Source: Lingula anatina
Lineage: Eukaryota > Animalia > Brachiopoda
DNA: 64,000 nt
Assembly: GCA_051362555.1 (NCBI GenBank)
Contig: CM120640.1
Span: forward strand, 29,903,967 to 29,967,966
Direction of reading: 5' to 3'
The notes under the pieces were generated by a model. The model was not told where the DNA came from, ran no database searches, and was given only the letters and a program-made list of their open reading frames with translations. The position numbers were made by a program, and so were the translations under genes. Shown in pieces: positions 4,642 through 41,626 of the stretch. The number at the start of each line of letters is the position of its first letter. The stretch's first letter is position 1.

Positions 4642-4832
4642 CAGCAATTGCTTATGTATTATGGGAAGACATTGAACATGGTGACATCAACAATTGCTGT
4701 TGTATTATGGGAAGACATTAAGCATTGTGACATCAACAATTGTTGTTGTATTATGGGAAGACATTGAACATTGTGACATCAACAATTGCTGTTGTATTAT
4801 GGGAAGACATTGAACATTGTGACATCAACAAT
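4642..4832. repeat. 46-bp minisatellite, block 1 (~4 units)
   Basis: Unit ATTGTGACATCAACAATTGCTGTTGTATTATGGGAAGACATTGAAC; period 46 (4681, 4727, 4773). Confidence 0.97.
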
Positions 4833-4989
4833 ACAGTGTTTTCCACGGTCACGTGACTTACGCTAAATTTTCCGTGAGAACACGAGATTTTGCGGGATTT
4901 GAAGTTTCAAGGGGCAAGTGCGGAGTGTACACGACGGACGCCATATCGACGAGTGCTCGTTTTGATCTGAATTTTCAAGGATTTGTAAC

Positions 4990-5485
4990 ATGATAACACC
5001 TGAATATTTTCGAAAACACATTCATGCTAGTACTTGGAATAGAAATTTAACAGACGTACCTGATGACTTTTCCAAGAAAGAACTAAAAACGTATCTCATA
5101 GACAGCAAGGATAGGACATACGATAAGAAATTTGTGCGGGCATTCAAAAGTCTGAAAGCTTATCGGTATTTTCAAGATGGATATGTGCAGAAAATCTACA
5201 CAACAGCTTTAGTGGACCACTCTGTGTCACCAGAAAACTGTCATGTTTAAAGCTAGACGAAAACAACAGGCCCTATTTAAATCAGAAACATAGCTACTTC
5301 AATCAAGTCCAGGGTCAAATGGCTGTGAACAACATTCATGAGTATATGATTTTGTTTTGTGCACAAAGGATCTCTTCATTGAATCTGTTCTGTTTGATGC
5401 TGTTCATTGGGCATCTGTGGTTCCTAAACTGACCAGTTTTTACAAGACATTCATTTTGACAGAGTTGGTGTACGCTACTATTAAA
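4990..5485 (+). pseudogene. YqaJ/lambda-exonuclease-type accessory protein relic of ISL2EU (N- and C-termini fused by deletion)
   Basis: N-terminal AFKSLKAYRYFQDGYVQKI. C-terminal LNQKHSYFNQVQGQMAV and DLFIESVLFDAVHWASVVPKLTSFYKTFILTELV, typical of transposon YqaJ domains. Confidence 0.8.
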
Positions 5486-6256
5486 CATTTTTTTTTTTCA
5501 TTTTTTTTTTCATTCAAAAATTCAAGCTTTATTCTATACATGCATTTAATACCAAACTGAGAATATGTGCAATATTATTCTGCATTGTGATCTTGGGTTG
5601 TGAAAATCTTTAGTGTTTTATTTTCATGCTGTTATTATAATCCTTGCATGATAATAGTCCGTTTTTTTTAAAATATTTTTTCTTTTGTGTATTTAACATG
5701 GATATAGATATTAAATAACACTGTGATAAAGTAAGGTTTTAAAATATGGTTGTGTTAGATGGTGCTATTATATAGGTTTGACTGGAATACAGTAGAATGG
5801 AAATGGTTCTCAGGAGTGAACTTTTATCTTTTTAGACTAGATTTTATTTTATTGATCAGTTGATGCAGGATTCAAGTGTAATTTATATATATTTTATGTA
5901 TTGAGCAGTGCAATGGATACTTAATTACGTTGTCATATAGTAATGTTTTTAATTATAACTTGGTCTCAGATGATGGTGCTTTAAATTAACATTTCCCATG
6001 TAGGTTGGTTTTATTTTACTCAGGTGTTAATGTGCATCTTTTTTACATTTATTTTAATTGGAAGATGGCACGTTGCTAGTGCATTTACTAGTACAGTAAT
6101 TTATTTGCAAACTTGGACATGCAACAGCTCAGCAGTGAACAAATCAAATATGTCTTTGCTATAGTAAATTTTGTACGCAGTTTTACTTTTCTAAATAAAA
6201 CGATGAAAGAAAATAAATTTGCTGTGATTAGCTTCTTCAATATAATTTTCCTAGTC

Positions 6257-6577
6257 CTACTCTCCGCCGCTTCGACCCATGTCGCACTTGAAATACTGTT
6301 TAGCCGTTTTGCGTGACTTTGGTAAATCAGCTGATGGTACTGCATCAATAGACATACTATCTTTCCTGTTTGGCTTCCTGGATTGGAAGTGACAGCCACA
6401 GACTTTGAAGTTGTCAGTTATATCTTTCAATGAAATGTTCGCACGGCCAGCGGCACTAATCCATAGCAATGTCGAACGTCTGTCCTTTGGAAATACAAAA
6501 AAAAAACTACAAACATTGTCTTTTCTACCTCTCCGGTGGCTGCAGTTATACACACTGCAGTTGTCGTGACCACCCAT
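6257..6577 (-). pseudogene. THAP zinc finger, N-terminus of a truncated transposase
   Basis: CSVYNC...FPKD...W...VCGCHF (C2CH THAP signature). An AVP-box-like DAVPS follows a frameshift. No intact DDE core downstream. Confidence 0.85.
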
Positions 6578-6721
6578 TACCGATAAATACAAAGAGCGGG
6601 AGATCTACTTTACATCATGACAGCTGTCTATGAAGGCCCCTTCTACTCTTGCCCCCTGAGAAACAGTCCCGCACAAAATAGCGCGAACTGCGCATGCTCA
6701 CGATTTCGTGGAAAACACTCT

Positions 6722-7035
6722 ATTGCTGTTGTATTATGGGAAGACATTGAACATTGTGACATCAACAATTGCTGTTGTATTATGGGAAGACATTGAACAT
6801 TGTGACATCAACAATTGCTGTTGTATTATGGGAAGACATTAAACAGTGTGACATCAACAATTGCTGTTGTATTATGGAAAGACATTGAACATTGTGACAT
6901 CAATTAACAATTGCTGTTGTTTTATGGGAAGACATTGAACATTGTGACATCAACAATTGCTGTTGTATTATGGGAAGACATTGAACATTGTGACATCAAC
7001 AATTGCTGTAGTATTATGGGAAGACATTGAACATT
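6722..7035. repeat. 46-bp minisatellite, block 2 (~7 units)
   Basis: Same unit, in register with block 1 once the insertion is removed. Confidence 0.97.
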
Positions 7036-10000
7036 TAGTCTGTCCGCAGATTCCCAGCTGCGCGTGCACACTGTCTGAAGCGACGGCCATTTTCGCACTA
7101 CTTTCAGCAAAATCGAGTGAAAATGGACGACTTTTGAGCTCTTCGTATTTTCATGTGTATTTTTGTCAGCAGTTGCTGTGATTTAACGATTGATATATAA
7201 AAAGAAGTGGGAATATCTAAGGATTCGGAATTTTAAGGTTAGTTGTCATAAAAAATACATTCAGAATGGTAAAATGGAAGATTTATCCACACGGGTGATT
7301 GCAAATGGTGCCCTGTTTCAGGTGTCCGAAATTTTCTATTTAAAGATTTCTATAAGAAGTTTAATTTGTACAAAGTTTTAATAACTAAATCATGAAAGCT
7401 AGTTAAACTGGGTTTCTGGAAGTCTATATATATTGAAAATTCAGCTTTGTCTATTTTTTTTAGCGCGAGGTGAACTCGACGCCAAGCACTCGCATTTTTG
7501 AAGCGTGTGACACTAGGGTGTTTCAATTTAAACAAAATTGCTACAATCTTGATATCACCAGCGTTTTATATATATTCTAAAAGGTAAACAAGTGTGCTTT
7601 GTGTTGATATGAAACACATGTTGCGTTTGGGTCCCAACTCGTTGGCAAAGTGTTCATATTCGCGTGAAGTCGGTGTAAAAGTCGGCATAATCGATTTTTT
7701 CAAGTGCAGTAGGTTACTGTGATTATGTATCGCATGAAAGGCAAAATATTTTCAAACAATTAGATCCTGCAGAAAGATAAGATCATAAACTTTCAAATGA
7801 TATATCATAAGATATGTTTCCTATAATTTTTACCCATTTTGTGTGGGGAAATCGGTGCATCTCCAAAACGACGACAAAAATGGAACCCCATTTTCATCAT
7901 AATTTATAGCGTCACGTGACCAACCTGAAGCACTGACCCGACTTGGCAAGACTACAAGTTTTCTTAAATATTCTTAATATCAGAGCAAACAAGTTACAAT
8001 AAAATTAAAATACAAACAAATGCTGTACATCTAACATCAGAAATATTCCAAGAGTTATATGCTTCATTCTTAAAACATCAAAAATGGTACAGTCATGATC
8101 CACTGCACAAGAAATCCAGTGTGAATTTTGACCAATATGGAAAGATATTGCTAGATCTAGTTATAAATAAAACAAGATTTTTTTTAATTGGATAAATATT
8201 TACAATGAAGTACTGGCCTATTGCCAGGTTGTACTTTTTAAAGCCTGAAAGGGTTTTGATAAAAAAAAATCGTTCAACACCAGTTTATTCATTATATTAA
8301 GATCTGCACTTCTGCCTTGTTCTCTTATTTTACTGCTCAAGATTTATTTCTATGTACTAGTACTATTTTTGTCTCTTACATATTAAACTATTTAAAATAA
8401 GACAATTCCAATTGTAATTTGAAAAAATATCCCTAATCTATTTAAAATTTATATTTATCTTTTTAAAAGTGCAAAATTTTGAAATCTGTGTGCTAAACAA
8501 AACTAAGTAAACATTTAAAATTCATGTCCTTAAAGTACTGTCCCTGGGAAATGTTCATTCAGCCTCATCAATATGCACTGAACTTTTTGAAAGTTTTTTT
8601 GAAACTTTTTGCCTTTTAAATTAAAGCAGTTAACAAGGCTCCAATAAACTCGTTGGCCAACTTGATATGAGGGCAGGAGAAGCACCTGCCCCAGCAAGTT
8701 ATGAATATTACTTTAGCCAAAACTGACATACAATTAAGATCATCCCCAGCTGAAAATTCTTGAATATAATTTGTAATTAAATACATATCAAAGTGCATTA
8801 AAAATGAAAAAAAAACTTTACTACACGAGTATGTTTCAATTTTTTTATTTCCTTAGAATCTTCAATGGCCAGGTCATTTACCTGGATATGACAATCAGAA
8901 AACAAAATCAATTCTCAAGTTCAAAATTGGGCCATTTTCCCAGAGTGCCACCCTGCCACCCAGTGGTTGATAGATTCCTTGACTAAATGATCATAAAAAC
9001 TTGGCCCATATAAAACTGCTGTCAAAATTTTGTTAACTTAAGCATAATATTCCCCAAACTTGACCTCCAGTCAGATTCGATTCTTTTGAGAGCACTGTAT
9101 CCTCTCTCCACCTGAGAAGTGGACAGGCTGAACAAGGGAATTTCAATTAGCATTATTGTATGTATTCTAATCTTTGTCTGGTCTCCTACCCTTGAAACAA
9201 ATCAGTACACATAGCTTTACTTTTATTCACTGTAAACATGCCACCTATGTGCTCTTTAAAGGCAGGCCACTCTCAATGGAAGTCTTTTGGGTAAAAGCCC
9301 AACCTGTATAATACTTGAAGAAAATAATGTTCCAGAACTTGTCTGCTATGAGAAAGGTTTCTAGGGTAAACAATATCCAAGGCTCTACAAAACACCATCT
9401 CTTGTTCAGTCACACCTGCATCAACAGCACCATCACTGTTCACACAAAATCGTATTTTCCCTGGTCTTGACCAGAACACCTCTTCCCTTATTGTCAGCTG
9501 ATATGAAATTCAGGAATCTGTTAGAAATAAATATAATAAAATGATAAAATCATACATGTAGAAACAAGAAATTTATACAAAGCAGATAAAAACTGAAATT
9601 TAATGAAAAATCCATAGATTAAAAAAAAAACTCACCTCATTGTCAGTCTCACACCAGTTGTTTATCAAAGTAATTTCTTACCATGCTATATAGTAATATC
9701 CTACTACTAGTAATAGGCCAGTTATAAAAAATACAGAAGTATTGGCTTTTATATATATATATAAACACTTAATTACCTTCTGCTTTGTCTGACTGGTATC
9801 TTTTCATAATTTCATGCCATCTAGTCCATAATTCTCATGCTATAGCTTAGGCAGGGATAGGTATGCTGTCAACATTTCACTAAAATTGAAAAAGCACAAT
9901 GCATAGGTCATAAAGTGTGCATTGGTCATAAAGTGTGGCTGTGCCTTGACAAACTATTTTTTTAAAACTTGTTTAATTTGAAGACTTTTATTTTAATACC

Positions 10001-11132
10001 AACAATTTCAGATAAATTGCGAAAAATTGTTAAAAAATCACAATATTTAAACTTTTAATGTAAAACAACTTTGGAACCTGCCCAAGAAAGACCTTTAGTA
10101 CACCTGTGATTGCGCAATGCGCTAGTTAATAAGTGTGTATAGACACACACACCCTATTTTGGAAAAGGTCTAGATAAGGAAATACAATGGATGAAGGTAC
10201 GCAAGTACACACTTTATGTAAACAAAGTACAACTGTAACTTAATTTGCAACAAAATGTAACATTCACTTGTACTAAACGTCAACAAGTGCATCTGAACTA
10301 TGCGAAGGGAGGTTACTCCAAAATCATTTCTATACATTTCGGCGCTTATATGAAACATAGTGAATGAAAAAAAAAAAAGACTCACCTTTAAGTCGGCAAA
10401 CCCAAAGCTATGTAACTTGAAAGGCAGATTTTTCCATTCTAAAATCTAAAACCATAGCATTGGTTGATCTCCAGCACCGATGTCATTTTTTCACGTATAA
10501 TTTTCCATAACAACTCTCACTATGACAGTGACACATTGTATACTATAAATATACACTTGAAAAGCTGAACATTCAATTTTTTTCAACCGAAATGCAAGAT
10601 TTACCGAGAAAAACGCTCTCCAGTCACTTGCTTAGTGCAACGTGACAGTCCCAGTTTCGACTGACCTACATAGTTCGCACTAAAATAGGGATTTCACAAA
10701 AAAGGACGGTTGTACAAATTTTTTATTCTTCTTGGCTCAATTCCAGCATATATAGTTGCATAAATTGTTATAATATCATGAAAGTAAGTTTGTCCATTTT
10801 TTCTACAATCATTTCATTTTAGGGTACAAAATTACACGATCTGCTTGAGAAAAATGCGTGTGCTATTTTTAGACAACTGATACAAGGCTTTCGTCGAAAA
10901 TTGAAATGTTTATTTTACATTGTGCGTTTACATCAAGTTCTAAGTTTTATTTTTTGAAAGTTTCAAGCAGAATAATGAGTTATTCTCAGAGCTTCATGGA
11001 TTTATATAACAACTACGGATTTTTGAAAACATGGCGTGAAACACACGTCGCGGACTATTTTGTGCAAGCGCGTAGGTGTTTTTATAATGATCACCGCTTA
11101 TGCATTGATATGCAAGATCTGCGGACAGACTG
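7036..11132. mobile_element. Non-autonomous DNA transposon with 3-bp TSD, probably Academ (AcademX-type ends)
   Basis: 16-bp TIR (T/C)AGTCTGTCCGCAGAT and ATT TSD (7033-35 / 11133-35). YAG termini with a 3-4 bp TSD are typical of Academ. No Academ ORF seen. Confidence 0.75.
8940..9660 (-). pseudogene. Spliced, internally deleted hAT-family (ZNF862-like) transposase relic
   Basis: FCVNSDGAVDAGVTEQEMVFCR (first catalytic Asp region). LIEIPLFSLSTSQVERGYSALKRIESDWRSSLG at ~9050-9150 (hAT C-terminal dimerisation motif). Intron GTGAG...TTTCTAACAG at ~9636-9518. Confidence 0.75.
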
Positions 11133-11505
11133 ATTGTGACATTAACAATTGTTGTTGTTGTATTATGGGAAGACACTGAACATTGTGACATCAACAATTG
11201 CTGTTGTATTATGGGAAGACATTGAACATTGTGACATCAACAACTGTTGTTGTATTATGGGAAGACATTGAACATTGTGACATCAACAACTGTTGTTGTA
11301 TTATGGGAAGACATTGAACATTGTGACATCAACAATTGCTGTTGTATTATGGGAAGACATTGAACATTGTGACATCAACAATTGCTGTTGTATTATGGGA
11401 AGACATTGAACATTGTGACATCAACAACTGTTGTTGTATTATGGGAAGACATTGAACATTGTGACATCAACAATTGCTGTTGTATTATGGGAATTAGACA
11501 TTGAA
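11133..11505. repeat. 46-bp minisatellite, block 3 (~8 units)
   Basis: Same unit. Confidence 0.97.
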
Positions 11506-11966
11506 GGGCAGAAACCACTAAATGGAGCAATCACTGACTGTTATAGACGAATGTATACATATACATATACAGTTCAGTGAGAGAAAGTTAATTGGTGCTT
11601 TTTACCTATTTTTCCTGGCATTTCTTGTGTGTTCCTAGCAGGCTAGGGTGTTAATTACTGCCTTTTTTTTAAATTCAGAACCAGGCATAGTTGTGGTGCA
11701 GTCGTGAGACCTCTGGTGGCAGGAGCTACTGACTGTGAGCGGTGCAGTGGTTTGTTTACAAACAGAGGGGTGCACATGTTCAAGTAATGCCGATAAAAAA
11801 GTTTACTTGATGACAGTATATTTTTGTGCCATTGGGAGTTATGTCAGTGTGTCTGCTGTCCATGGGGATGTGAAATGTTTCACCCATTTATTTTGTTCAT
11901 GCAATTTTGCAGGTATTTCTTAGTATGGCCATCAATGGGAAATTATATGCCAGGTTGTTTCTGTCC
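11506..11966. repeat. KolobokP long terminal direct repeat (complete, 461 bp)
   Basis: TGAA|GGGCAGAAACCAC ... GTTGTTTCTGTCC|TGAA, i.e. its own short TIRs. Aligns with 28118-28560. Confidence 0.85.
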
Positions 11967-12370
11967 TGAAGGGGGAAAATATATAAGGGGTGGTCTGGCT
12001 AATTATCAATTTTTTGGTCAATTAAATGAAAAATTACACAGAAATTTGCATACCACACAGGAGGGATACTGTTGTTTGTGGACTGGGGGCACCAGTTGTT
12101 CCATTGGGGTCTGTTATGGGATGATGAGGGTTACATTTCCTGGGGCCGGATACTCCGTTACTGTTGGAGTGCACAGGGTGACATTTATGCTAAAGGAAAG
12201 GATTCCCAACATACCGAGAGAGACAGAAGTATCTCACCTGTGTGGAGTCGCTTTGTGCTGTAACTCCGATCATCTCACAGCAGAGCTTCACGGAAGCAAC
12301 AAAAACAGATTACATTGTCATAATCTGGGAAGGTGCATCAGACACGAATAGAGGCCAAATTGTGTACATG
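11935..12370 (+). pseudogene. His-Cys box (I-PpoI-like His-Me finger) endonuclease of KolobokP
   Basis: CLWTG..YG..VHR..EVSHLCGVALCCNSDHLTAE..NKNRLHC..CIRHE*RPNC. The TAG at 12349-51 falls before the final PxC motif, so it is probably premature. Confidence 0.9.
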
Positions 12371-13655
12371 ATAATTATAATTTTATTTTAGTTTAGTTTA
12401 TTTTTTATTTTTTATTTATTTATATTTTTTACATTTACTTAATTTCTAGATTTCTCAATTATATTTTTAAGTTTTGGGTAAAAGAAAGACCAACAAACTT
12501 GTGTATATTTCACAACCAGGTTATTACAGAGTAGTATCTTGAAATCATACATTTTCTTTTAAATACATGTTCTCTTTGAATAACTGTGATCAGAAAATAC
12601 AAGTTTTGGCATAGATATGCGTTGTCTATAGTCATAACTTTTCAATGCTTTAGATCTGTCTTACTTTATGTAGCAGTTAAGGATTCTCCTTCTAGCTCTT
12701 AACTTGAATGCAAGTGTCTTATTGTGATTCACTCTCATTGTACCACCAGCGTTAGCGCTGGCGGTACACATGGTTTTAGTCCTGTCCGGATTGTTCCGCC
12801 GGCTCCGCCGGACGGCTACCGTTACCGCTTCTCCTCCTAGACAGTAAGGGCCTCCGTACCCATCTCTTGGATTTAGGTCACCTATAATCTCAACTCGTTC
12901 CACGTAAAATTTGGGCTTTGTTGGTATTGGGGTCTAGGTGTGGCACTCATAGCAATGCACCCTTGTCTAAAAATGGTAAAATTAAATGCTAATTATCTAC
13001 CCTACGGAAGGAATTATGGGAAAAATTTCTACAGACGGCTTTCCAAAAGTCATATGTGTAGATTTCAAATATGCCCTTGGATTTGACCTTTGACCTTTAT
13101 TTCAAGGTCAAACGGGCCAAAATTTTCATAAAAACGAATTTTTTTATGAAAAAAAAAAATTATTTGCCCTGTTATTCAGACACCACACAGACTTAACCAA
13201 TAATATTATTGGAAAGTGTTACCCTTCAGGTCATCTTTCATCTCCGTGAATTTGGGGTCAATCGTTGCATTTTCACGGGAGTAGCAGCCATAAGATAACG
13301 AAACTGAAAACTGTCTCTAATTCGGGAACCGTTAATGCTAGAGACCCATTCTTTTTTGCATTTTGTAGAGCATGTAAAGCCCAACACTGGAAGTGGTCTC
13401 TGTTTTTTTGTATTCCATACGGTTTTCGAGTTACGCTGTATCAAAAAGTATATATTGGTGGTGAAAGCAAAATGTGCAGTACAGTAATGGATAATAAATT
13501 TTGAACTCCAGAAAAATAAAACATAAGGCTTGGCGAGGGCAGACAACCTGTGGTCAAAAATGACATTATTTCATCAAATTTGAACATCTGGAACTTCAGA
13601 GCACCTCCCATTTCAAGAATTTTGACCAAAATGACCTTTTCTTTATTTTAATTAA

Positions 13656-14884
13656 TTTTTATGTACAGACACAGATGTGATTGGATCATTTTTAGTGAAT
13701 TTAGGCTATTTTTTCTCTTTTTTCAGCATATATGCAGCACCGATAACACCATAAATGGAAAACCATTTTACCTTTTGGCTTGAAACTTACAGAACTGATG
13801 AATATTCATAATACGCAGGTAAAGTTCGAAAATCAGCATGATCGGGCCATTTTTAGGGAAGTTATGCTGTTTTTTCACTTCTTTCAACATATATGCAACG
13901 CTAATAACACAATATAAGAAAAACAGATAGGCCAATTGTCATTATACTCACAGGAGTAGTCAAACTAACTCAAACGCAGGTTGAGTTCCAAAATCAGCAT
14001 AATCGGGCCATTCTTTTAGAAGTTATGCTGTTTTTTCTTATTTCCTCAGATTCAGTTGTTAGGCATGTTAACAGTCTCATTATTGAACTAATAAGATACA
14101 TAAAAGTGTTTGTTTGACATTTCCTGCATCTTAATAACATTGTTAGTTGATTATGTAAAAATGATGGTAAACTTGTTATTGTGTATTATGTTATAAAGTG
14201 TCAAAAATGGAAATAAACAAATATCATTGCAGTTTGTCAGATTCAATCATCTACTATATTCATTATCTCAGAATGGAGGAAATTGGACATTTAACACTGT
14301 TCTATTGATATTTTTCCCATCTCATCAATTTTCTTAGTTGATCATATACAAATGGTAGAAAACTGTTTATTTTGTTTTATGTTAAAAAAGTGTTTTAAAA
14401 ATGGAAGTAAACCCATTGCAGAACAGTGCTGTCTTGTTTCAGCATATATGCAGCACCGATAACACGATAAGTGGAAAACCATTTTACCTTTTCCCTTGAA
14501 ACTTACAAAACTGATGAATATTCATAATACGCAGGTCAAGTTCGAAAATCAGCATGGTCGGGTCATTTTTAGGGTAGTTATGCTGTTTTTTCACTTCTTT
14601 CAGCATATATGCAGCACCAATAACACGATAAGTGGAAAACCATTTTACATTTTGGTTGCAAACTTACAGAACTGATGAATATTCATAATACGCAGGTCAA
14701 GTTTGAAAATCAGTATGATTGGGTCATTTTTAGGGAAGTTATGCTGTTTTTCACTTTTTTCAGCATATATGCAACACTGATAACATGATAAGTGGAAAAC
14801 CATTTAACCTTTTGGTTTGAAACTTGCAGAACTAATGAATATTCATAATACGCAGGTCAAGTTTGAAAATCAGCATGATCGGGT
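13656..14884 (+). mobile_element. Helentron family B copy nested in family A, with ~160-bp internal repeats
   Basis: Starts TTTTTATGTACAGACACAG at a T-run that is uninterrupted in the 52511 copy (53440-53455). Repeats at 14440, 14601, 14761. Confidence 0.75.
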
Positions 14885-14904
14885 CATTGTACCACCAGCG
14901 TTAG

Positions 14905-16300
14905 CCATAGTAACTATTGAAGTTGAATAGGAAGTCATATACTGGCAATCATAATTTGACCTTAAAATTGACCTTTGACCTACTTTTCACCATGAAATGA
15001 ACTCTGCAAATTTTGCTTCCCTTTATCTCCAAAAATGGCAGAAATAGGTCCATAGTTTCTATTGAACTTGAATAGGAAGTCATATACTGGCAATCTAAAT
15101 GTGACCTTAAAATTGACCTTTGACCTACTTTTCACCATGAACTGAACTTTGCAAATTTTGCTTCCCTTTTATCTCCAAAACTGGCAGAGATAGGTCCATA
15201 GTTGCTATTGAACTTGAATAGGAAGTCATATACTGGCAATCTAAATGTGACCTTAAAATTGACCTTTGACCTACTTTTCACCATGAATTGAACTCTGCAA
15301 ATTTTGCTTCCCTTTTATCTCCAAAACTGGCAGAGATAGGTCCATAGTTTCTATTGAACTTGAATAGGAAGTCATATACTGGCAATCTTAATGTGACCTT
15401 AAAATTGACCTTTGACCTACTTTTTACCATGAACTGAACTCTGCTAATTTCTTTCTCTTTTAACTCCAAACCTGGCAGAGATAGGTCCATAGTTACTATT
15501 GAAGTTGAATAGGAAGTCATATACTGGCAATCTATATGTGACCTTGAAATTGACCTTTGACCTACTTTTCACCATGAATTGAACTTTGCAAATTTTGGTC
15601 CTTTTTATCTCCAAAACTGGCAGAGATAGGTCCATAGTTGCTATTGAACTTGAATAGGAAGTCATATCCTGGCAATCTAAGTGTGACCTTGAAATTGACC
15701 TTTGACCTACTTATTATCATGAACTGAACTCTGCTAATTTCTTTCTCTTTTAACTCCAAACCTGGCAGAGATAGGTCCATAGTTACTATTGAAGTTAAAT
15801 ATGAAGTCATATTCTGGCAATTTACTGTGACCTTGAAATTGACCTTTGACCTTCTTTTTACCATGAACTGAACTTTGCATATTTTGCTTCCATTTTATCT
15901 TCAAAACTGGCAGAGATATGTCCATGGTTACTGTTGAACTTGAATAGGAAGTCATATACTGGCAATCTTACTGTGACCTTGAAATTGACCTTTGACCTAC
16001 TTTTCACCATGAACTGAACTTTGCAAATTTTGCTTCCCTTTTATCTCCAAAACTGGCAGAGATATGTTGATAGTTACCATTGAAGTTAAATATGAAGTCA
16101 TATTCTGGCAATTTACTGTGACCTTGAAATTGACCTTTGACCTTTTTACCATGAACTGAACTTTGCATATTTTGCTTCCCTTTTTTCTCCAAAACTGGCT
16201 GAGATAGGTCCATAATTACTATAGAACTTGAATAGGAAGTCATATACTTGCAATCTAAATGTGACCTTGAAATTGACCTTTGACCTACCTTACGATGAAT
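14905..16300. repeat. 146-bp tandem array of Helentron family A (~9.5 units)
   Basis: Recurrent GACCTTGAAATTGACCTTTGACCTACTT...CCAAAACTGGCAGAGATAGGTCCATAG. Confidence 0.95.
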
Positions 16301-21299: not shown

Positions 21300-21301
<2 letters not shown>

Positions 21302-28560: not shown

Positions 28561-29337
28561 GGAAGGCAATGAACATTGTGACATCAACAATTGCTGTTGT
28601 ATTATGAGAAGACATTCAACATTGTGGCATCAACAGTTGTTGTTGTATTATGGGAAGACATTAAACATTGTGACATCAACAATTGCTGTTGTATTATGGC
28701 AATACATTCAACATTGTGACATCAACAATTGCTGTTGTATTATGGGAATATATTGAACATTGTGACATCAACAATTGCTGTTGTATTATGGGAATACATT
28801 CAACATTGTGACATCAGCAATTGCTGTTGTACATATGTATTATGGGAAGACATTGAACATTTTGATATCAACAATTGCTCTTGTATTATGGGAAGGCAAC
28901 GAACATTGTGACATCAACAATTGCTGTAGTATTATGGGAAGACATTGAACATTGTGACATCAACAATTGTTGTTGTATTATGGGAATATATTGAACATTG
29001 TGACATCAACAATTGCTGTTGTATTATGGGAATACATTCAACATTGTGACATCAACAATTGCTGTTGTATTATGGGAATACATTCAACATTGTGACATCA
29101 GCAATTGCTGTTGTACATATGTATTATGGGAAGACATTGAACATTTTGATATCAACAATTGCTCTTGTATTATGGGAAGGCAACGAACATTGTGACATCA
29201 ACAATTGCTGTAGTATTATGGGAAGACATTGAACATTGTGACATCAACAATTGTTGTTGTATTATGGGAAGACATTGAACATTGTGACATCAACAATTGC
29301 TGTTGTATTATGGGAAGACATTGAACACTGTGACATC
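28556..29337. repeat. 46-bp minisatellite, block 4 (~17 units, with a 284-bp internal duplication)
   Basis: Same unit. Variant units (GTACATATGT, GGCAACGAAC) repeat at 284-bp spacing (e.g. ORFs at 28729 and 29013). Confidence 0.97.
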
Positions 29338-30252
29338 AGCACACGAACGAAACGTACAGCCTCGATATGAAACCAGACAACTTTTGTGTTTTTAATCTCC
29401 AAATACTTTAAAAAATCAATTAAGTTAATAAAAACGCAAGGAACAAGAACTTCTTAGATCGTACATTTTATATTAATGATTATTAAAGATCATAATAATT
29501 AAAGAGTCGCATTTCGATTTACTCCATGCTATGGCCTTTATTGAAAAATAGCATTTTTTACGAGATTACAAATTGCATCGTATTGTTTGGTTCCATTGCC
29601 TCGCTTTCAAAAATAAGAACAGGCGCCCCAAAACCAGGAGACGAAGTTAAAAACATTATATTGGCCGAGTTCGCCCAGGAACAAGAATGTCCTCGTAGCA
29701 TTATCTGCAATTAACCTTCCTACGATTTTGAATGTATTTTGCAATATTATTTTCAATTTGGCCCATGGTGAATTTTATTAATCAAGAGGTGAGGGGGTAG
29801 GGAATTCCCTTCAGATAGTATGACCTCACATGACATACCTATAAATACTTCACCTTCAAAGGGAATCCCCGAACAAAATAGAAAAAATAAATAAAGTTTT
29901 TTCGATTGAATCATTTTAATGCCACAAAATGTTATTTTTTGGGGGGTCGCAACCATTTATTAGTTAATAAAGTGTCTACTCTTTCTTTTTTTTTGTTTAA
30001 ATATACAAGATACGATAAATCAAAAGTAGGTCAATTGGGGGTCAGGGATTCCCCCAACATGTACTACTCTATTTTTCCACAAATAAAATATCGTTTTCAG
30101 CAAAGACTGACATTTTCATCTTTTTATGCATACACTAATGAAAACACATCCAAAAAATATTTTTAAACGACAGTGCAAAGCTAATTGACTCGACCAGACG
30201 GCAAACACTGCCGCGCTTTGGTCCTGTGGCAGGCGACATACCAACCGTAGAA

Positions 30253-33200
30253 ATGGAGAAGTGTTGTTCTCGTCTGTCCTCCGATTGTTATGGACGTGTG
30301 TGTACTGTAAGAGATAATCGAACAGCAAGGCAGACAGGGATAGCGATAGGCTCTCCTTTGTGCCGTTATCATTATCGAGATGAATACATAAAGTTCTGTT
30401 GCACCGAAGGCACGGGACTTTTTGACAGCCACTCCTCAAGATTTCGCCCCTGTCCCGAGAGGCTTTGGGAAGTGTTAGATGACATTGGAAGTAATAACAA
30501 CAAGTAGAGAAAAGGCATCGGCATTTGCTGGTCCTGTTATAAGAAGATAGACACCACTGTCCAACATCATCCTTCATATATTCCATCAATTAAAAGAAAA
30601 AAATCAGAGGTATGGTATTTGTTCTGACATCTTATTTTTCTCACTTTTTTTAGACAAACCTAAGTTGTTTGTCCATAATACTTTAAATCATTTCTTTTAT
30701 TTCAGAGTTCATCCGATGCAGACACAGATGAAGTTACTCAAATGAACAGTGAACATGACTATGTGAGTTCACAAATAATAAATAAAGAGCAAATAATACA
30801 AAACTTGGTAAAACTTGAAAATTTCATCACTTAAAATTTTACATTTTGAAAATGCCTGAATCAAAATGACCATATTAGGCAAGAACTTTTCAAAATTATC
30901 CAGAGGCCTTTTTTCAAATTTGACAAAATTTTCTAAGTGAAAATAAAAATTATGTAAGCAGAGACTCATCTTCTGAAAAAATGTTCAAGACTGACTTAGT
31001 TTTCAAGTGTTTACCATAAAATAGTATGGCTCAATGAGCCTAAATGCATTAAAACTAAGAGAACACAGAAATGTGAGCAATTCTATTTAATTCCTTTATT
31101 TCCTAAACACATACATGTATACTTTACCAAAATAATTTGATAAATGCCATACACAGTTATGTAAGCTGCTTTTCATTAACATTCACAATTTTATTTCAGG
31201 CATCATCTGCAGAGAGTAATACTGCAATAAACAGTGAACAAGGCCATGTGAGTAAAGATAAATAAAAATCCAGTAGCAAGTCCTCTTGACTTTTTTCTTT
31301 CACAAATTAAAGACTCACTTCCAACAGGCTTTTAGATTTTTTGCCCTTGGTATTAAAAAGTCGTTACTTTGATTTCAGATTACATTCACTGCAAACAGAG
31401 AAATGACTACTCCCAGACCAGTAAACAATGAACATAACTATGTGAGTAAAGAGAAATAAACATAATTCTATACACAATAGTTATTTTGCAATCTATATAT
31501 TCTCTGAAATAAATATTACTACTACTAAGGGCCTATTGTACAAAACACATTAATCCTCACGTGATGCTTGTAGTATCCAGGGGTTTCTTTTGGATTTGGG
31601 GTATAGGGAGTCCAATATATGGATCTGAGATGTATCTAACCGAGCCATGTTCATCAGTCCGGTATGTTTAAAGACAAAAGGTCAAACGGTTTTCCATAGT
31701 TCAACACTCTTGTGGTTAGGATGGTGTGGTGAGCTTTCATGCCTTGCTTGTAGACATCTTTGGAGCACAGGGCTGGTCTTTTAACAATATTTACTCAAAA
31801 GCAATGGAGGCAAAGCGCTAAAAGCATTAGATGCTCTGCATTTTTGGAAAATTAAATAAGTAAATAGTCTTTCTCTTTGTCTTGGTCATTTGGCATATCC
31901 TGTAGGAAAGAACAATACGTTTTAGCATAAATATTAAAATTTTTTTCTAGATTTTATTTGCTGGAAGCCCAAACAGCAACACTCAGTTGATCTCCCAAAA
32001 AATAAAGAATCAGAAAGATTCCATGGAAGAGCTCCAAGAATCCATAGAAAAGCTCCATGAAGAACTGCAAATACTTAAAGACAAAGGTAAAATGATAATG
32101 ATTAATCAGTATCACAGTCCATACACGGACTGAATTATCCTCCTTCAAGATAACATTAAAACTCTACATTTAACTATAGTGAGTCAAAATCACTGAAAAT
32201 GTGTAGCCCTTGGCATAATTCTTTATGTCATTTTTTTTCCAGAAAATTTTGCTCAACTTCTTGAGACCTTTCAAAGGGCCTTATACACCCATTATGAGAA
32301 TGGTGGGGTAAAGTTATACCAACCAGATGTAATTCAGGCCTTTTGTGATAAGCATTCCCCTGGGCTGTGGCAAATGATCCTCGAGGCCATAGCACCTGTC
32401 CGTGGATCTAGTCAAAAAAGAATGGAGCTTCAAAAGCAAAGAGTAGCTAGCTTGCTACATACACTAAGCTATTTTAAGTAAGAAAAACACTAGTAAAAAT
32501 AATCTAGCATTAATGAAGTACACATTAATTTCAGCTCTAATAAATAGATGAGGTTAAAATACAAATGAAGTCTATGAATAAAAAAAGGAAAAAAAATGCA
32601 CAATTTAGGACATCTAAAAAAAACAAATGATTTTACCTATAAAATTAATTATTGCTTTTTTCTTCTTTATACTAATTACTCTGCAAACAATCGTTGACAT
32701 AAATGTATCCAAGAAGCTTTTTTTTCATATTCTTATTATATAGACTTGTATACTCTACTTACAGAAATCAGAAAAACAGCCACATGGTTAAAGATTCTGG
32801 ACTGTTCCTGCACCACAGAGGACTGTCAAAGTCTGGCCAAACAATGGGTTCTATCATGGGCTGCAGTGTGTCCAATAGTACACTTACAAGACATAGAGAA
32901 CATTTATCAGTACTCAACTCTAAATCAGTCACTCAATGCCTCAATAAAGTAGCTAAGGTGTGTATACCACCCTAGACTAGATAAATAAGCAGAAATTTAG
33001 ATAACACAACTTTTTATACCCACTTTCACTCCTGATAAAAAAGACTTTCTATCTTAAAAAATTGTAATAATAAATTATCTACATTGGGCATGTGACAGGC
33101 AATAATCATTATTTCTTTACAAATTAATAACTAAAATAAACTTCAACAGCACCAGTGTTGCTGTTTTAAAGTAAAACATTACTGTATTTAAGCATTGATA

Positions 33201-36200
33201 TTATTTACTTCAGAACAAGAAGCTACTACTTGGGTTCATTGATGACTTTCACAATGTGCACACAATAAGGGTTCCTACAGAACATCATGCATCATCAGCA
33301 GTGAGCATGGCCACTCTATTGGTTCAACAGGTTCCTGTTCCTGCCATTACCGCTTCTCCAGACCTCCATACCTCCGTTCTTGTGGACAAGAAGCTGTGCC
33401 GTGGGGGCATTGACATCTCTGCTGTCCAAACAGTCATCTCTAAACTTCAACAGAAAAGAGCTAGTAATTTATTTCAGTTACTGCCAGAGGAGTTACTTCA
33501 GCCAAATCAAACAATCTCAACAGCAACACTGGAAGAACTGAGGTATGTATATGTACATGACTATCATTTAATGACATTAAAATAATTGGTGTATCAAAAT
33601 GATGCCTTTACAATGAATTATACCCAAATATTGCAATAAGCAACCTGACATAACTCCCAATGGTACATAAATATGTTTTGTGTTATCAGACAAACTTTCT
33701 TACCGACAATCAATGCACTGCTCCAATTAGTAATACCCTTCGGCAGAGGTCTCACGACTGCACCACACCTGTGCCTGGCCCTTGGAAAAAAAAAAAACAG
33801 GCATTTGTTTACACTGTAGCCTACTAGTTGACACCAAAATGAACCCTTGTAACACACAAGAAATGCCAGGAAAAAATGGAAAAAAAGCACATATTTTCTC
33901 TCACTGAACTACATTCATCTATAACAGTAAGTGATTGCTCCATTTAGTGGTTTCTGCCCATAAAAAGGAAATTTTTTGGAAAAATCACATCCCTGTGTAA
34001 TCCTTTTATCTTGCACTGAAATTACAATACTTTACATTTTGTGCATTTTAGGCTTATTTCCAAAATAATCTATAAAATTCTTATTTTTCAGAGTTTACAA
34101 TGAGGTGCAACATAGGGAGCTAAACAAGCTCAACACTACCTTGCTGATTGATGAAGTTCATCAGCCTCTTCATTCCTTAGCAGATTATGAAAAGGCATTC
34201 AGGAGGTTGTTTTTAAGTGATGAGCTCGTGGACTATATCAAAAGCAATGCAGTTTTTCTTCCTGGGGATTACCCAACTTTCTACTTCATGAAAAAACTCA
34301 TAGCCCAACTGCCCATCACAGATCATCGCCTTCACGTTGTTCCACTTCAAGGTCCATTTCACGTCTTCTTAAACCTGATCGAGGATATTGTCATAACAAA
34401 TCACGCCTTCTTTGCCAATCTGTATCGTGAAGTCTTTGGAGGGATTCTCGCTAAAAAACCAAAACCCTTTCGTATCAGTCTTGTCATTGTTGCTGCATAC
34501 CTTGGCTGGCATCATATTCGCTCATCTATTCTTCATAAATTTCATCTATCTAAAGATTTGGAAGTTCTTTATATCCTCTTTCTTTTAGATACTCTCATTC
34601 CAACAGCATTTGTTTATTATTCTAAAATCTTTCGTACTGGAGACCTGATCAATTTCCGACTCATCACATCTCTCATTGCCATCATCTTCATCATACTTCG
34701 TCGCAAACATTACAACAAAGCTACTTTGGCAAGCATAAGCGACGACATTCATCATCAAGGTTTACCAGTCTATGAGCAAATCAAAAATTCTCATCTTAGC
34801 ATTTTCACCGAAAAACTTGTGGAACTCTTTCACAGTGTTCTGCGACGTCACATTCAGCCACATTCCACCCATCAGCAAATTTCACAAAGGGCTAAAGAAC
34901 TTTCGGCAGCAAACATCGATTCATTTTCAAGTAACTTCACCAACCAACCATCATCTTCATCCCACTCTAAAGACCTTACTTTGATCACACACAAAACTGC
35001 TGTATTCCTAGTCAAGTCATTTTCTGCAATAGCTGATCACATAGGCCAGGCCAACCAGGTAAATAAGGTTCAAAAGGGTTGAATAAAAGTACCTTGAGTG
35101 GTGGTAGTTTGGTATATTTTGCAATCGGCAAAAATTATCAGTTTTTCATAAACACTATTTTGGAATCAGAATATTCTATTTCAATTTTACCAACTTCGAG
35201 GACCTGTCCACTAAATTTTTCCCACTCTATGAAGATTAAGCCATTCCGGACTCTCCAAATTATCTTGCCTTTCTTTGTCCCAGTGATTATTTATAGAAAG
35301 TCTAATCTGAGCATGCATTTAGTGATATTTCTAATGCACAATTAATTTGGGGTGTTCAATAGCTCAACACCAATGCCAAATGTTATTGGAATATTTGGGA
35401 TAAAGAAAGCTAAAATATGCAGTTACTGCACTATATTTTGAGTGTACAACAAAGTCTTAAATTCTCCTACCACTCAGGGCACTTTCATTCAACTGGGTAA
35501 CTTCCCTTCGATTTTGAACATAGAATCCCACTCACAAGGTGGATTTATTTGAATCACAATATTGTAATGCTATTGTGTTCATACTAAAGGTTTTACATTA
35601 TAAGAATTGAGATTAGGTGCCAATTGCGATTCAAAATGTTGTGTGTGAACAGGGTAAACAACAATGTCATAAAACTATAGTTTCAATTTTACATCAATTT
35701 ACAGAGTGAAACGAAGCCAAAGGAACTTCCAAAGTACCATCTACCAGGGCTGCAAATTGATGTGGATGTGAGGAACATGCCTCTTGGATTTTCTTTTTAC
35801 GATTTTGGCGTTAGCATACCAAATATACATGTGAGGTACATTGACAATTAGCAATTAGCAACTTTTTTTTTAGAAAATAACATTGAATGTGGAAATGGAT
35901 AAATTTGCCATTTGAAAGTATGAGAAAAATGTCCTTTACCCCTTTTTTTTGCCAAAATGAACAGTTGTTATCCCTTTAACATTTAATAAGCTAAAATATA
36001 AATTAAAAACAAAATGTATGATGATATCATGCAATGAAATATTTCTTACCTTTTCAGATGTGAAAGCACAGAGTGTTTGGCTGATGAAAATGCAGAATTC
36101 AAAATACTCATGTGTGGGCACTCATTTCATATAGCCTGCATGCCCAACCAATGCCCTTTTTGCCTAAAAAACATAAACAAAAGACTAGCAGACCTTTCAA

Positions 36201-37173
36201 ACACTTTTAATCTGTCATTACTACAAAAAAAAATGTCCGGATATCAAAAGAGAAAGTGATTGCTCTACAGACGATCTTTCCTCATCACCATCTAAAAGCC
36301 CTTATTACCATTCACAAGACTTTCACCATGATCTACAAAAACACATCAATTCCATCAGCACCCTGCCATTTCCAGCAAAAAACAACATCAAACAAACACA
36401 ACAAGAAACCAAACAATCATACAAGCAAAACACTGTTATCACTCCCAAAATACACACAAACCCAGGCAAGCTAGCAGACAAATTAAAAAACCACACAAAC
36501 TTACCACTAAACAATCTTCACTTCACAGAACTTAAGGACATTGAAAAGCTAGCATGCCCATGGCAGGGAACAACATCTCATGGCATTAAACTCATCAACA
36601 CATGCCCCATGGATTTCATCCTCAGTTGCATAATCATATCTGCCATTAAATCACCTTCATTTCGGAACCTGCTTTTTTCGTTATCAAACCCCACTGCATT
36701 ATCCCTCCAGCAAATGTACCATATGCTACACGCCACCAAGTCCTGGTCAGACATACGCCTTCATTGGCTGAAACTTACAAACAACAGATTTTTAGCCGCA
36801 AATCTGAACAACAACACCCTCAACTGCTGGGGTGAGGAAATGGACCTTATCCTCTCCCCCATTTGGAATTCATCCCTGGGAAACATGTCTGCAAAACCCA
36901 TACACCATTGTCCAACCTGCAACCAAACCAGAGCAAGAAACCCAATTAAAACCCTTCCAGTGCACAAAATTCTAAAACAGTAAGTTATTACAATATTTTT
37001 TAAAATAAATGTTTCTTTAAAAATATTGTTTAACACATTAACTTTAATAATACTACATTTTTTGACCGAGTTAAGTTCAATTATTCTACTACATTTTACT
37101 AGGTTCAGTATCTTGATGTGTGATGAAATGAGAAATATTTGAGGCACACCCAAATAATTATATTGCACTCAGA

Positions 37174-37221
<48 letters not shown>

Positions 37222-38346
37222 TTTCCAGGCATGGAAGTGGCATCACACACCTGCAAACTGCAGTAAATGAAGTTCTAACACCAACATCTACAAAATACAC
37301 AGATTCTAAGTGCCCACAGTGCAATACGACAGAAAGGATTCATTTTGAACTCGAAAGACAGCCTCCTTTGTTGTTGTTGTGGGTGTATCCATATGCACTG
37401 TAAGTGCAATCATGTCAAAATATATTAATAATTAGCATAATATGTATAAATTAATAAAAAGATTAAATAAATAAATATTCAAGAAATAGATAACATTAAC
37501 AGTCTACCATGTTAGCTTCCGACTAAACCAGCTAAATTTTGTTTGGACCAGCATTTTTCTCCTTAAAGTTTCAAAAATAGAGATCTTTGATTAGTATTTT
37601 TCAGGAATGTACTTATGATTCTAAATTTAAAAAAAATAAAAGTAATGTTTGACAAAACCAACTGCTACAATCTTTTGCAACTATAAATATTAATGTAATA
37701 GGGTAAAATGTGTGGTTTCATTGGAAATTTCTAATTAAGGCCGTAAATCCTGATTAGTAGCTGGGGTCCTAAAGATAAGCGAGCTGAAAGTTTATGACAC
37801 ATGCTTTGCATTAAAACAGATTAACATTAACAATGTTTGTTTGTATTACATTTTTTTTTGCATATTTTTAATTTCAGGGAGCAACGTGGCATAAAGTTGA
37901 CAGATGTGCCTAAACACTTAACTCTAGGCAACACAGAAAATAGGTAAATATCAAGCTGATAATTAATGACCTTGTTATTGTTTGTAAACATAAAGCACAA
38001 TATGGGTATTATTAATTAGTTAACACCTCAAGACTGTTCAACTTGCTCTCAATCCCAATAATATAGATTATGTTACAAACCAAAAGTTTTAGAAAAATTG
38101 AAGTGATATATATTTGTTTTCAAATGTATAAAGGTTAGCACATTGAACAAGCTATACTTTACTTTCAGATATACACTGGTGGGCACTTCAGCTTACAGAG
38201 ATAGTCACTACAGTAGTCACTTTGTGCGAGATAGGGTATTTATAAAGTACGATCCACTTCATTTACCTGGTGACTGTAAGACTGCACTGGATCTTTCAGT
38301 TCATAACAGCCCACAGATGACCAACACCTTAGTGTACATTTTATGA
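30253..38346 (+). pseudogene. 14-exon, ~1,283-aa Academ-related DDE transposase fused to a RING finger and a USP-like cysteine protease (one nonsense codon, one +1 frameshift)
   Basis: Exons 30253-30609, 30706-30762, 31200-31247, 31379-31441, 31951-32086, 32243-32477, 32765-32957, 33214-33542, 34092-35058, 35705-35835, 36058-36979, 37229-37399, 37878-37943, 38169-38346; all GT-AG and phase-compatible. Motifs IDDFHN, PGDYPT, GPFH..LN, VELFHS; CGHSFHIAC..CPFC; NTCPMD..HY..YD. Lesions: TAG at 30505 and an A9 run at 36225-33. Confidence 0.85.
33645..33959 (-). mobile_element. Partial solo KolobokP terminal repeat in intron 8
   Basis: Reverse complement begins GGGCAGAAACCACTAAATGGAGCAATCAC and aligns to 11506-11847. 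Confidence 0.8.
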
Positions 38347-38599
38347 TTTGTTTCAAGTCACTTACTTATTGGTTTGCTTGAAGACTTAAGGCTTTGGGCA
38401 TGTCACTGGCTTATGTTAAAACTCCTTAAAGTAATAGCTGTATGTGATAATGTTAGAAATGGTCCAGTCATAAGCTTGAAAATTTGAAACAAGTATTTTA
38501 AAAACGTGAGATTGCACTAGTATGAAATGGATGTTTTCTGGGGTATCACATGGTGATACACATTTTTAATGCAACTGTTAAGAAAAAACTGTCCAGTGT

Positions 38600-41120
38600 A
38601 GTTTGCAGTGGTTTGGTGCCATTTCTATGTGTGGAAAACAAATAGGATTCTGAGTCAGAGTGTAAAGCAATACTTGGTGCACCTCAGACATTTCTCATCA
38701 CATTATACATCAAGATGTCAGACCTGGTAATAATGAAGTAGAATAACTGGTAATGAAGCATGTGAAAAACTACCTTGATCAGAACTCTGCAGTTCACAAT
38801 GTATTACCTGAACACATGATGACTCTTCTTTCTATTGCATCACTCTTCATTTTCTGAGCTTGATAATTTTTTCCAGGGGCAGACACTGTCATATGGCTAT
38901 TGCTTTTGTTTACTGACTGTAAAGTGAAGTTAAATTACTGGCTCTGTATCACAAAAAAGGGTTACACTGCAGCAGGACCTTTTATCATGCTGCTTATCTA
39001 TGTACACATTTTAATATCATTTTGAGATATTATCTTCATCCAAATTTTTTTATTTAAACAATTAGGATTTGCTGCTTGAAAAGCTTAGCTAGTACATCCC
39101 TTGGGATGCATGTTATTTGTCAAACACTGTGATATTGCAATTGTTGTCATTTATATAGTTAATATGTTAGATTCAAAAAAATAAATTCACAAAAAAAAAA
39201 AGTTAAGATGAGCGAAGTTATTTAGGACAGAGTAACTTCTTCAATATCTTCAATACCTTAGTCTAAAAGGATAACTAGCAACATTGTATTATACAGTAGT
39301 GGGTTAACAACAAGGACTTTATTTAAATAATTAAAACATTCTGTTGCGTGTGAGTAAAGTTATCTTACTAAACTCTGAATTTGATATATTTGTTATGATT
39401 TTTAAATCATGTCAGCACTATAAAGCTCGGAGAATTGCTGTTTAGGGGATGGGGAAGGGGGTTCATCTCAACTCAAAACATTTGGAGCATGAGTGGAATG
39501 ATCTCAAATTATCAATTTTAATCTATTACCACGGCTACTGGGTGGACTTTTGTTTTAAACATATGTCCATATAATTGCTTGAGATTCTAAAATTTTACCT
39601 CCAGCCTGAAAATAATGCATTAGCTCTACTAATAATGATTTTAAAATGTACTGTGCTAAAGCATAACACAATGGCCTCAAAAAGGGTAAAATATTGACCA
39701 GTTTTTGCCTCCAGTGTTGATACGGGTCCCAAATTTTTATCTTATCTCTGATCTCCTCCACCAGAATACTAGTAAAGCAAATCAGTTTTCCCCTTGGCAG
39801 AGCCATACATAAGCTACAAAAAGATTCATCTGATCTTCATCAATAGTAGTGCCAATGCATAAATTTTGGTCCAGCTCAGCATAAAAAAAGGCCTTACGCC
39901 CAGTGCTTAAGGGAGGAAAACCTCCCAATTGGTTCTTTAAAAGAACGAGAAATCGCTTGGCAATAAAATCAAAACTTCTTGACATTTAGTTGTTGATAGA
40001 ACTTGCAAAATTTTATGTAAACAATCGAGCAACAAAAGGGTTGACTACATACTTCTCAAGTTCACAAACACATGATGCTTCCAGATGGCATGCACAATCT
40101 TGCAGGATCCACAGTGCTGTATGATAAGGTAGAATTTTGTGATGGATCATCACTGGTGCCTCAATTATCAACCTGGTACTAATAAATGAAAATTGAAAAA
40201 AAAAAAAAGCCTGAGGAAATTACATAAGAACATCACGATTTACCAAGTATAAGGTGGATCTGATGTCTTCTGTTATTTTATTCAGATTTTTATCTTTCAC
40301 TTCCTCTCAATTCTGTCTCAAGCTAATCTTATCATCTCTACAGGTCTATGTGGATAAATAGTGCATGGCCTCACTGTTGTGAGCAGATAAAACATATTTA
40401 AATGTAATTTTTGCCTTCCAATTATGACAGCTGAGCTTACTGCCAGTGAAATTTTACTGTATTACTTACTTAGTGTTTATTTCTGATGCAAGTTTCCACT
40501 GGTTCCTCTTTATTGGACTTTTCCTCCAAAACTAACTGTTGACTTCCAATGTATTCTCATTGGTCGAAAAACTTGAAGTTTATTTAAAAAAAAAAACATT
40601 TGAAACAAGTAAGGAAATTTCCACACTAAATTATTTTAAGACATTTCTCAAAGACAACCACATAATTATTAGATAAGCATCGAAAATGAGAGTTACAGGC
40701 TTGGGGGAATACAAAAATACTTAGTTCTTCTTTACCACGTAGTTGTAAGAGATAAAAGTCCCGGAGAATTTGTGAATATTGCTGAAAAATAAAATCGAGT
40801 TAATTGTCCCTTTTCTACACTATGGTAAACTAGTATGGTGTTCTAAAGTAGCTTTCCGTAGTTTGGGGGTCTATAAACTTGGCTGATTAACCCGTCAAGT
40901 TGACAGTTTAGTGTGAACAAAAAAAAAAAAATTCTTTGATATCAACCGTGCCAACGGAAAAAATCACACTTGTAAAATTACCGTTTTTGTCTCTAGTTAA
41001 CATACGTGTTCTCGTACTTTAAATAGTCTAGACATTTTCACTCTTTCGTTGCCTACGGTATGCAGAGCGAAGAAAATGTTAGACTTTTACTTACCTACCA
41101 CGAGGCAATGAATCCGCCAT
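38600..41120 (-). pseudogene. Degraded second, convergent spliced gene of the 11.8-kb element (possibly Ulp1/C48-like)
   Basis: AAAATGGCGG start (MADSLPR) then a GT donor near the right TIR. Coding-like frameshifted blocks at 39555-39985 (IDEDQMNLFVAYV..LICFTS..KIKIWDP). Identity uncertain. Confidence 0.4.
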
Positions 41121-41180
41121 TTTGTGCTGTTAATTTCAAGTGGCGCTTTCGCACATGCGCAGTCGTTTGAAACCTGTGCT

Positions 41181-41626
41181 TGTGACATCAACAATTGCTG
41201 TTGTATTATGGGAAGACATTGAACATTGTGACATCAACAATTGTTGTATTATGGGAAGACATTGAACATTGTGACATCAACAATTGTTGTTACATTATGG
41301 GAAGACATTAAACATTGTGACATCAACAATTGCTGTTGTATTATGGGAAGACATTGAACATTGTGACATCAACAATTGTGGTTGTATTATGGGAATACAT
41401 TAAACATTGTGACATCAACAATTGCTGTTGTATTATAGAAAGACATTGAACATTGTGACATCAGCAATTGCTGTTGTATTATGGGAAGACATTGAACATT
41501 GTGACATCAACAGTTGTTGTTGTATTATGGGAAGACATTGAATATTGTGACATCATCAATTGCTGTTGTATTATGGGAAGACATTGAACATAGTGACATC
41601 AACAATTGCTGTTGTATTATGGGAAG
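41181..41626. repeat. 46-bp minisatellite, block 5 (~10 units)
   Basis: Same unit; the array ends here. Confidence 0.97.

Follow-up and report, generated by a model that had tools for sequence, protein, structure and literature searches.

In the brachiopod Lingula anatina, a small tandem array has been split by four unrelated DNA transposons, here called E1 to E4. The array lies in a window of 64,000 nucleotides (GenBank assembly GCA_051362555.1, contig CM120640.1, positions 29,903,967 to 29,967,966 of the forward strand), and all coordinates count from the first letter of that window. A preliminary description had recognised about 2.1 kb of minisatellite with a 46-bp unit, divided by four unrelated DNA transposons, and was right on both points. 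It had also proposed that the repeat attracts transposases, which we could not support: the targets cluster at chance level, the array folds like ordinary sequence, copies of the E2 and E3 families lie elsewhere, and the flanks and the interior of E3 are filled with insertions as well. We think it probable that the transposons inserted sequentially at generic target words, in a locus that tolerates insertions, is rich in repeats and is probably both multicopy and pseudogenic. Directly visible in the DNA are the array, three target duplications that lie in phase, the KolobokP-type organisation of E3, the DDE gene of E4 and the repeat-rich flanks. The observation is real, and a tidy example of something already known in kind.

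The five blocks of the array, all on the plus strand, total 2,095-2,121 bp (about 46 units scored) and diverge by 2-5% from the array consensus. They occupy 4638-4832 (4.2 units), 6722-7035 (6.7 units), 11133-11505 (about 8 units, with TGAA at its end), 28557-29337 (about 17 units, with a 284-bp higher-order duplication) and 41181-41626 (about 10 units). Removal of E1, E2 or E4 brings the array unit back in phase each time. Of the target signatures in the preliminary description, the AT, ATT and 9-bp duplications are in phase, but the TGAA proposed for E3 is not visible beside a right TIR (terminal inverted repeat). Three private unit variants are common to blocks 4 and 5, that is across E4, and T42A is common to blocks 2 and 4; blocks 3 and 4, on either side of E3, have only the widespread C38T in common. 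Elsewhere in the window the unit is not found beyond one 11-12-bp match. No match to the array was seen in metagenome contigs, a result that is uninformative for animal sequence. An internal repeat of one transposon was rejected as the origin of the array, given its exon-like flanks and the failure to find enclosing termini. The start of the array (4616-4659) includes a short stretch of the unit in inverted orientation; in a contig of run X5 position 4615 is joined straight to the array, so other copies seem to be without the inverted piece.

E1 (4833-6721, unstranded, 1,889 bp) is a non-autonomous element with a 15-bp TIR (14/15 matching) and an AT duplication. Its target site reads ACA-AT-TGC, which is the standard A/AT/T word of ISL2EU elements and speaks for generic target words; TA in place of AT was rejected as it needs a non-consensus unit. 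The element retains a THAP remnant on the minus strand (6260-6604; Pfam PF05485, E 3.9e-11). No DDE or YqaJ Pfam match was obtained in the scanned E1 frames, and the element is internally deleted. The segment 4966-5247 may resemble the start of a YqaJ open reading frame (ORF). In the consulted parts of the source, ISL2EU elements have an A/AT/T target, a THAP-DDE transposase, a YqaJ ORF and TIRs that usually begin with GG (PMC4482050). E1 shares with ISL2EU, a member of the PHIS superfamily, the AT target in A/AT/T, the THAP domain and a putative remnant of a second ORF on the opposite strand; it differs in its internal deletion, in the lack of a detected DDE or YqaJ domain and in its ends, which read AC.. 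and AG... E1 is accordingly classed as ISL2EU-like only, since target and THAP domain fit but DDE and YqaJ were not detected in the scanned frames and the ends are not GG.

E2 (7036-11132, unstranded) is a 4,097-bp TIR element with a 16-bp TIR (15/16 matching) and an ATT duplication, without an intact gene. None of the scanned E2 frames gave an informative Pfam match, including to the Academ transposase or nuclease. An 8-bp duplication of the hAT type was considered and rejected, as none is present. A minus-strand segment (9025-9201) carries what we take to be a motif like the hAT C-terminal dimerisation region; it is without Pfam support, and stands beside a 3-bp duplication all the same. Among Academ elements, AcademX makes 3-4-bp and AcademH 9-10-bp target-site duplications (TSDs), according to the consulted parts of PMC10045372. 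E2 is like AcademX in TSD length (3 bp, ATT) and unlike it in that no nuclease or transposase was found, and is not filed there, a 3-bp duplication being insufficient.

E3 (11506-28560, minus orientation, 17,055 bp) had been described as a plain TIR element. This reading fails: the element is bounded by two direct repeats with no TIR pair, its right TIR is missing, and a single 17-kb TIR element was rejected. Self-comparison aligns direct repeats at 11504-11949 and 28116-28560. The 3' long terminal direct repeat (11506-11966, minus strand, 461 bp) has its own TIR and TGAA on both sides; it starts with GG and ends with CC (RR..YY), the TIR matching at 11/13 positions. The 5' repeat (28118-28560, minus strand, 443 bp) is truncated and lacks the outer TIR. 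Outside gaps the two are 91% identical (382/420 columns), plus several indels. The right repeat, minus its last ~17 bp, passes via TATGG into a variant unit of block 4, and the TGAA at 28571 is array sequence with no visible duplication beside a TIR. Between the repeats lie a His-Me finger endonuclease remnant (11968-12348, plus strand; PF05551, E 7.6e-9) and broken remnants of a Mutator-like (Kolobok-type) DDE transposase (19560-21100, minus strand), with PF20700 matches on the same strand within 19788-21100 (E 8.2e-7 and 5.1e-6).

KolobokP elements, in the consulted parts of Kojima and Bao 2022 (PMC9587614), have long terminal direct repeats of ~450 or 660 bp, short RR..YY TIRs, a DDE transposase on the direct strand as well as a His-Me nuclease downstream on the opposite strand. 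In the same parts, they make a 3-5-bp target duplication, reportedly without strong target preference, leave solo repeats elsewhere and measure 4.0-4.7 kb in the autonomous oyster elements (PMC9587614). E3 is like them in its ~450-bp direct repeats, RR..YY TIRs, DDE and convergent His-Me remnants, putative 4-bp target and solo repeats elsewhere, and unlike them in being decayed, swollen to 17 kb and one TIR short. On the strength of its layout E3 is classed as KolobokP-type. Brachiopods are absent from the seven phyla listed in the consulted parts of the describing paper, and 'Lingula' is not mentioned in those parts of its text and four supplements (PMC9587614). Nor did a literature search, in which subscription papers were not covered, return a matching case of KolobokP in brachiopods. 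As far as those parts go, E3 adds a KolobokP-type element from a phylum that the paper does not list (PMC9587614).

Like the flanks, the interior of E3 has been filled by insertions, and its 17,055 bp, as against 4.0-4.7 kb for oyster KolobokP, speak for a locus that tolerates them. Nested repeats at 12737-19563 (plus strand) contain 145- and 160-bp internal tandem arrays; in E3 as a whole such repeats form four blocks that together make up ~7.5 kb of the 17,055 bp. Related copies occur at 26518-27937, 52513-56452 and 59191-60361, and we take the nested repeats to be Helentron-like. The 145-bp internal satellite is present as 2.6-19 units in four copies of the Helentron-like element (12737-16504, 17866-19563, 26518-27937 and 52513-56452). 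A further ~4 kb of E3 (22300-26490) has no family label and includes a diverged 370-bp tandem duplication at 24172-25145. A third, degenerate terminal repeat of the E3 family lies outside the array, in an intron of the E4 gene (33560-33959, minus strand, low coordinate approximate). Three DNA runs from other samples contain the terminal repeat in abundance, and in one of them a contig (run X2, depth 228) reads from the repeat end through a perfect 13-letter TIR into TGAA and array. Such a junction would be expected if E3 had entered at TGAA and the present haplotype had lost the TIR later; read in this way, the TGAA duplication is supported indirectly.

E4 (29338-41180, plus strand, 11,843 bp) is flanked by a 9-bp duplication, TGTGACATC, and has a short imperfect TIR of which the first 6 bp are perfect (12/17 overall). 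It carries a spliced gene (~32400-38340) for a DDE transposase followed by a RING finger and a long C-terminal part. One 330-residue frame (34090-35079) is 99.4% identical to L. anatina LOC106159397, and coral homologues are 29-42% identical to the E4 protein. Its family comprises 2,392 matches among cluster representatives and has no Pfam model; with E4 the window adds a large coral-brachiopod DDE family. In a 68-row alignment of homologues the conserved positions are D93 (47/47), D252 (61/64), H283 (62/66) and E437 (52/54); the first conserved Asp is D93/D94, and the core can be written D..D..xxH..E. While the first predicted fold, of P0001, was unusable (pLDDT 39.5), a model of the homologue P0012 (pLDDT 91) had P element transposase, RAG1 and Hermes as its closest structural neighbours, with a best match at E 3e-3 and TM 0.39 and none at E 0.001 or better. 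The conserved D, D, E triad and the predicted RNase H-like fold identify E4 as encoding a DDE transposase.

Downstream of the DDE part is the RING-like finger, and beyond it a C-terminal part that, from its motifs, we take to look like a papain/USP-type peptidase; one E4 homologue has a Herpes_teg_N match (E 5e-4). No helicase was found in the scanned E4 frames, in P0001 or among the 25 families listed for the 68 aligned homologues. A weak DUF6589 match (E 0.0016) was present in 1 of the 68; DUF6589 is presumably linked to AcademH. E4 is like AcademH in its 9-bp TSD, its D..D..xxH..E core and that one weak match, and unlike it in lacking a detected helicase and in having a RING finger and a C-terminal part without a family. 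Despite the TSD length E4 is not filed as AcademH, because no helicase was found. It may have MuDR/P-like affiliation, or possibly represents an undescribed lineage with 9-bp TSDs. At 39500-40220 on the minus strand are broken frames without a Pfam match, a possible second gene.

As for where the elements landed, the four targets do occupy unit positions 14-35, one 22-bp half of the unit as had been described, but four targets fall within a 22-bp arc with P=0.23 in 200,000 random draws and 0.28 analytically. This clustering is at chance level, and a half-unit preference was rejected. The palindrome reported for the unit is perfect only with C38T, which is carried by 10/46 units, and 3 of those 10 are broken by T35C. 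The SOX/HMG-like motifs are present, but at ~1 per unit, so that their density is due to repetition of the unit alone. The array strand shows no special folding (z=+1.0, 175/200 shuffles folding equally well), and hairpin formation was rejected as it folds no better than shuffles. The target words AATT and TGAA are 1.6-1.7x as frequent in the array as in the flanks.

Contigs from other samples (three DNA sets, plus one RNA run) were aligned to 3000-12700, and the best rows of each table were used, for instance 24 loose ends with a further 988 beyond them. All three DNA sets gave depth in 30/30 bins, showing that they contain the flanks and the repeat families of E1, E2 and E3. A 290-bp contig of run X1, one of 24 listed, matches E2 as far as the precise right terminus and then has 119 more letters, which were not aligned to the array. 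Together with the E3-type repeat in the E4 intron, this contig indicates that insertion outside the array occurs in two of the four families; the preliminary description had proposed a check on where other copies of the families sit, and for E2 and E3 copies do lie outside the array. No contig spanning a whole block plus both neighbours was present among the matches listed, and the maximum share of sampled words per run was 0.41.

The setting of the array is consistent with a tolerant locus. Upstream, an exon-like segment (4395, approximate, to 4528, plus strand) ends in AG/GTAAGA; downstream, another (41895-41982, plus strand) is bounded by TAG and GT. The two, ending at 4528 and starting at 41895, can be joined in frame. 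From these splice signals and the in-frame join we infer that the array is intronic, as the preliminary description had held, but 4280-4540 contains stops in all three frames, and the upstream segment is likely a pseudogene copy. In the RNA run X12, depth was 8.3 over 4296-4619. No homologue of the 40-residue downstream exon frame and no telling Pfam match for the host gene were found; we presume a death-fold/TRADD-N likeness. At position 4542 in the left flank, 10-11 contigs had a summed depth of 1,925-6,033, compared with 30-140 for most single contigs at the joints; depth is not a copy number, and these figures suggest that the locus is multicopy. The flanks themselves are at least 41% repeat (11,039 of 27,011 bp, from a manual list).

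Our favoured explanation can then be put as a sequence of events. Four unrelated cut-and-paste transposons would have landed successively at ordinary short target words, and the large inserts would not have been purged by selection because the array appears to be intronic, within a gene copy that is multicopy and probably dead. E3 would have come early and is probably old, its terminal repeats being 9% apart; its right TIR would have been lost later, probably by a short deletion through TATGG. E4 would have followed and is probably younger, given 99% protein identity with another copy. Slippage may keep the array blocks alike. The array would also act as a ruler, in which each insertion is easily recognised, and the contrast with the flanks would be inflated accordingly. 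Seen in this way, the locus illustrates cleanly, for teaching too, how nested transposons accumulate where the sequence itself supplies the ruler, and the safe haven of the preliminary description fits in the passive sense of a tolerant locus, but not as active attraction.

Several observations weigh against this explanation. TIR elements number 1.9 per kb in the array and 0.2 per kb in the flanks (4 in 2,095 bp versus 5 in 24,430 bp, p=0.0035); when E3 is left out, 3 of 8 are in the array (p=0.02), and all of those of at least 1.9 kb are (4/4, p=4e-5). At a rate of 0.03 large intact elements per kb, uniform insertion would give 0.07 such stretches genome-wide. Flank elements were counted by hand, so that old inserts are missed, and neither the nested inserts of E3 nor the large repeats of the flanks belong to the TIR class, which makes them an imperfect control. 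The multicopy and pseudogene status of the locus is itself something we infer, and the X2 junction, in which an intact KolobokP-type TIR meets the array at that TGAA too, may record a second, independent event. All the density tests are post hoc and within one window. In favour of the explanation, when all recognisable insertion types are counted the array has 4 and the flanks 14 (p=0.15), and at 0.2 TIR elements per kb ~99 such 2.1-kb stretches are expected genome-wide under uniform insertion. The local excess of large TIR elements stands, but the repeat cannot be singled out from the locus as its cause.

That excess, about nine-fold and with all four large elements in 2.1 kb, is also what would be expected if the array were a real shared hotspot, drawing unrelated transposases through its chromatin state, its bendability or frequent breakage in slippage and unequal crossover. 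The array does turn over, as its 284-bp higher-order duplication indicates, and run X2 provides a TIR-to-TGAA junction in another sample. Against this, the locus is single and was picked post hoc, there is neither a positional preference in the unit nor a special fold, and target words are no more than 1.6-1.7x denser, with p=0.15 across all insertion types; a hotspot strikes us as rather unlikely. If true, it would mean that a 46-bp sequence steers unrelated transposases, which would bear on target choice and safe-harbour design. We regard as unlikely the wider proposal that 46-bp arrays genome-wide form a landing pad for several superfamilies, drawing ISL2EU-like, KolobokP and other DDE transposases via chromatin or breakage into a harmless site. 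A different possibility is a mosaic, in which blocks of different paralogous arrays, originally holding one or two inserts apiece, came together by misassembly or by unequal recombination, the latter via the array or via the E3 repeats. The flank and array look multicopy, the right junction of E3 has neither TIR nor duplication, its terminal repeats are 9% divergent with several indels besides, and blocks 3 and 4 have just the common C38T in common; likewise, no block-spanning contig is among the matches listed, with <=0.41 of sampled words per run. A mosaic nevertheless sits poorly with the one coherent KolobokP layout between the E3 repeats, with the three private variants linking blocks 4 and 5 across E4 and T42A linking blocks 2 and 4, with outer exon-like segments that are joinable in frame and with an X2 contig that carries the junction to be expected of an intact E3 end. 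We therefore hold it to be quite improbable.

Nested transposon clusters are known in tandem repeats and low-constraint regions, with sequential pile-up, nesting and terminal erosion; the present case differs in being a short, likely intronic minisatellite and not a long satellite block. In a literature search, in which subscription papers were not covered, no case came up in which DNA transposons of several superfamilies are drawn by a minisatellite. The known target-specific DNA transposons use RNA genes, in the consulted parts of PMC3706591, and one could imagine that each of the four families targets this repeat specifically, in the way that Dada elements target small-RNA genes. All four families are in the array and the X2 junction repeats the TGAA site, but E2 and E3 family copies lie outside it, the targets are generic 2-9-bp words and KolobokP reportedly lacks a strong preference, which leaves this idea scarcely credible. 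Dada-type targeting implies that almost every copy occupies one fixed site in the target repeat, and the E2 and E3 families do not behave in this way. The inserts resemble Dada, Pokey and R2 in having entered repeated, dispensable sequence; those are, however, single families whose site within a conserved RNA gene is fixed, as described in the consulted parts of PMC3706591, whereas here the minisatellite is not conserved, the four families occupy four sites in it, and two or more of them insert elsewhere as well.

Finally, we looked at the remainder of the window. The preliminary description had stated that no comparably large TIR element sits outside the array, and indeed no flank TIR element of at least 1.9 kb with a clean duplication was found, but five smaller ones are present (1068-1501, 3003-3365, 42252-43703, 49637-49760 and 50819-51026), as are multi-kb non-TIR repeats. 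A published L. anatina assembly is 329.3 Mb with 31.7% repeats, in the consulted parts of PMC13121700. The stretches 50100-51700, 51888-52381 and 63147-63456 contain LINE-like (long interspersed nuclear element) remnants, which we take as such from likeness, which gave no Pfam match and which a 208-bp TIR element interrupts, together with further minisatellites of 62-bp and 37-bp units, both without insertion. The 434-bp insert at 1068-1501, with a CTG duplication, interrupts a repeat whose intact copy is at 59891-60361; CWG is the target of NuwaI, according to the consulted parts of PMC4482050. In the element at 42252-43703, inverted repeats of ~100 bp (71% identical overall, 90% in the core) surround an exon-like segment (43047-43206) whose frame matches TPR_SYO1 (E 2.5e-6), a possible captured exon.

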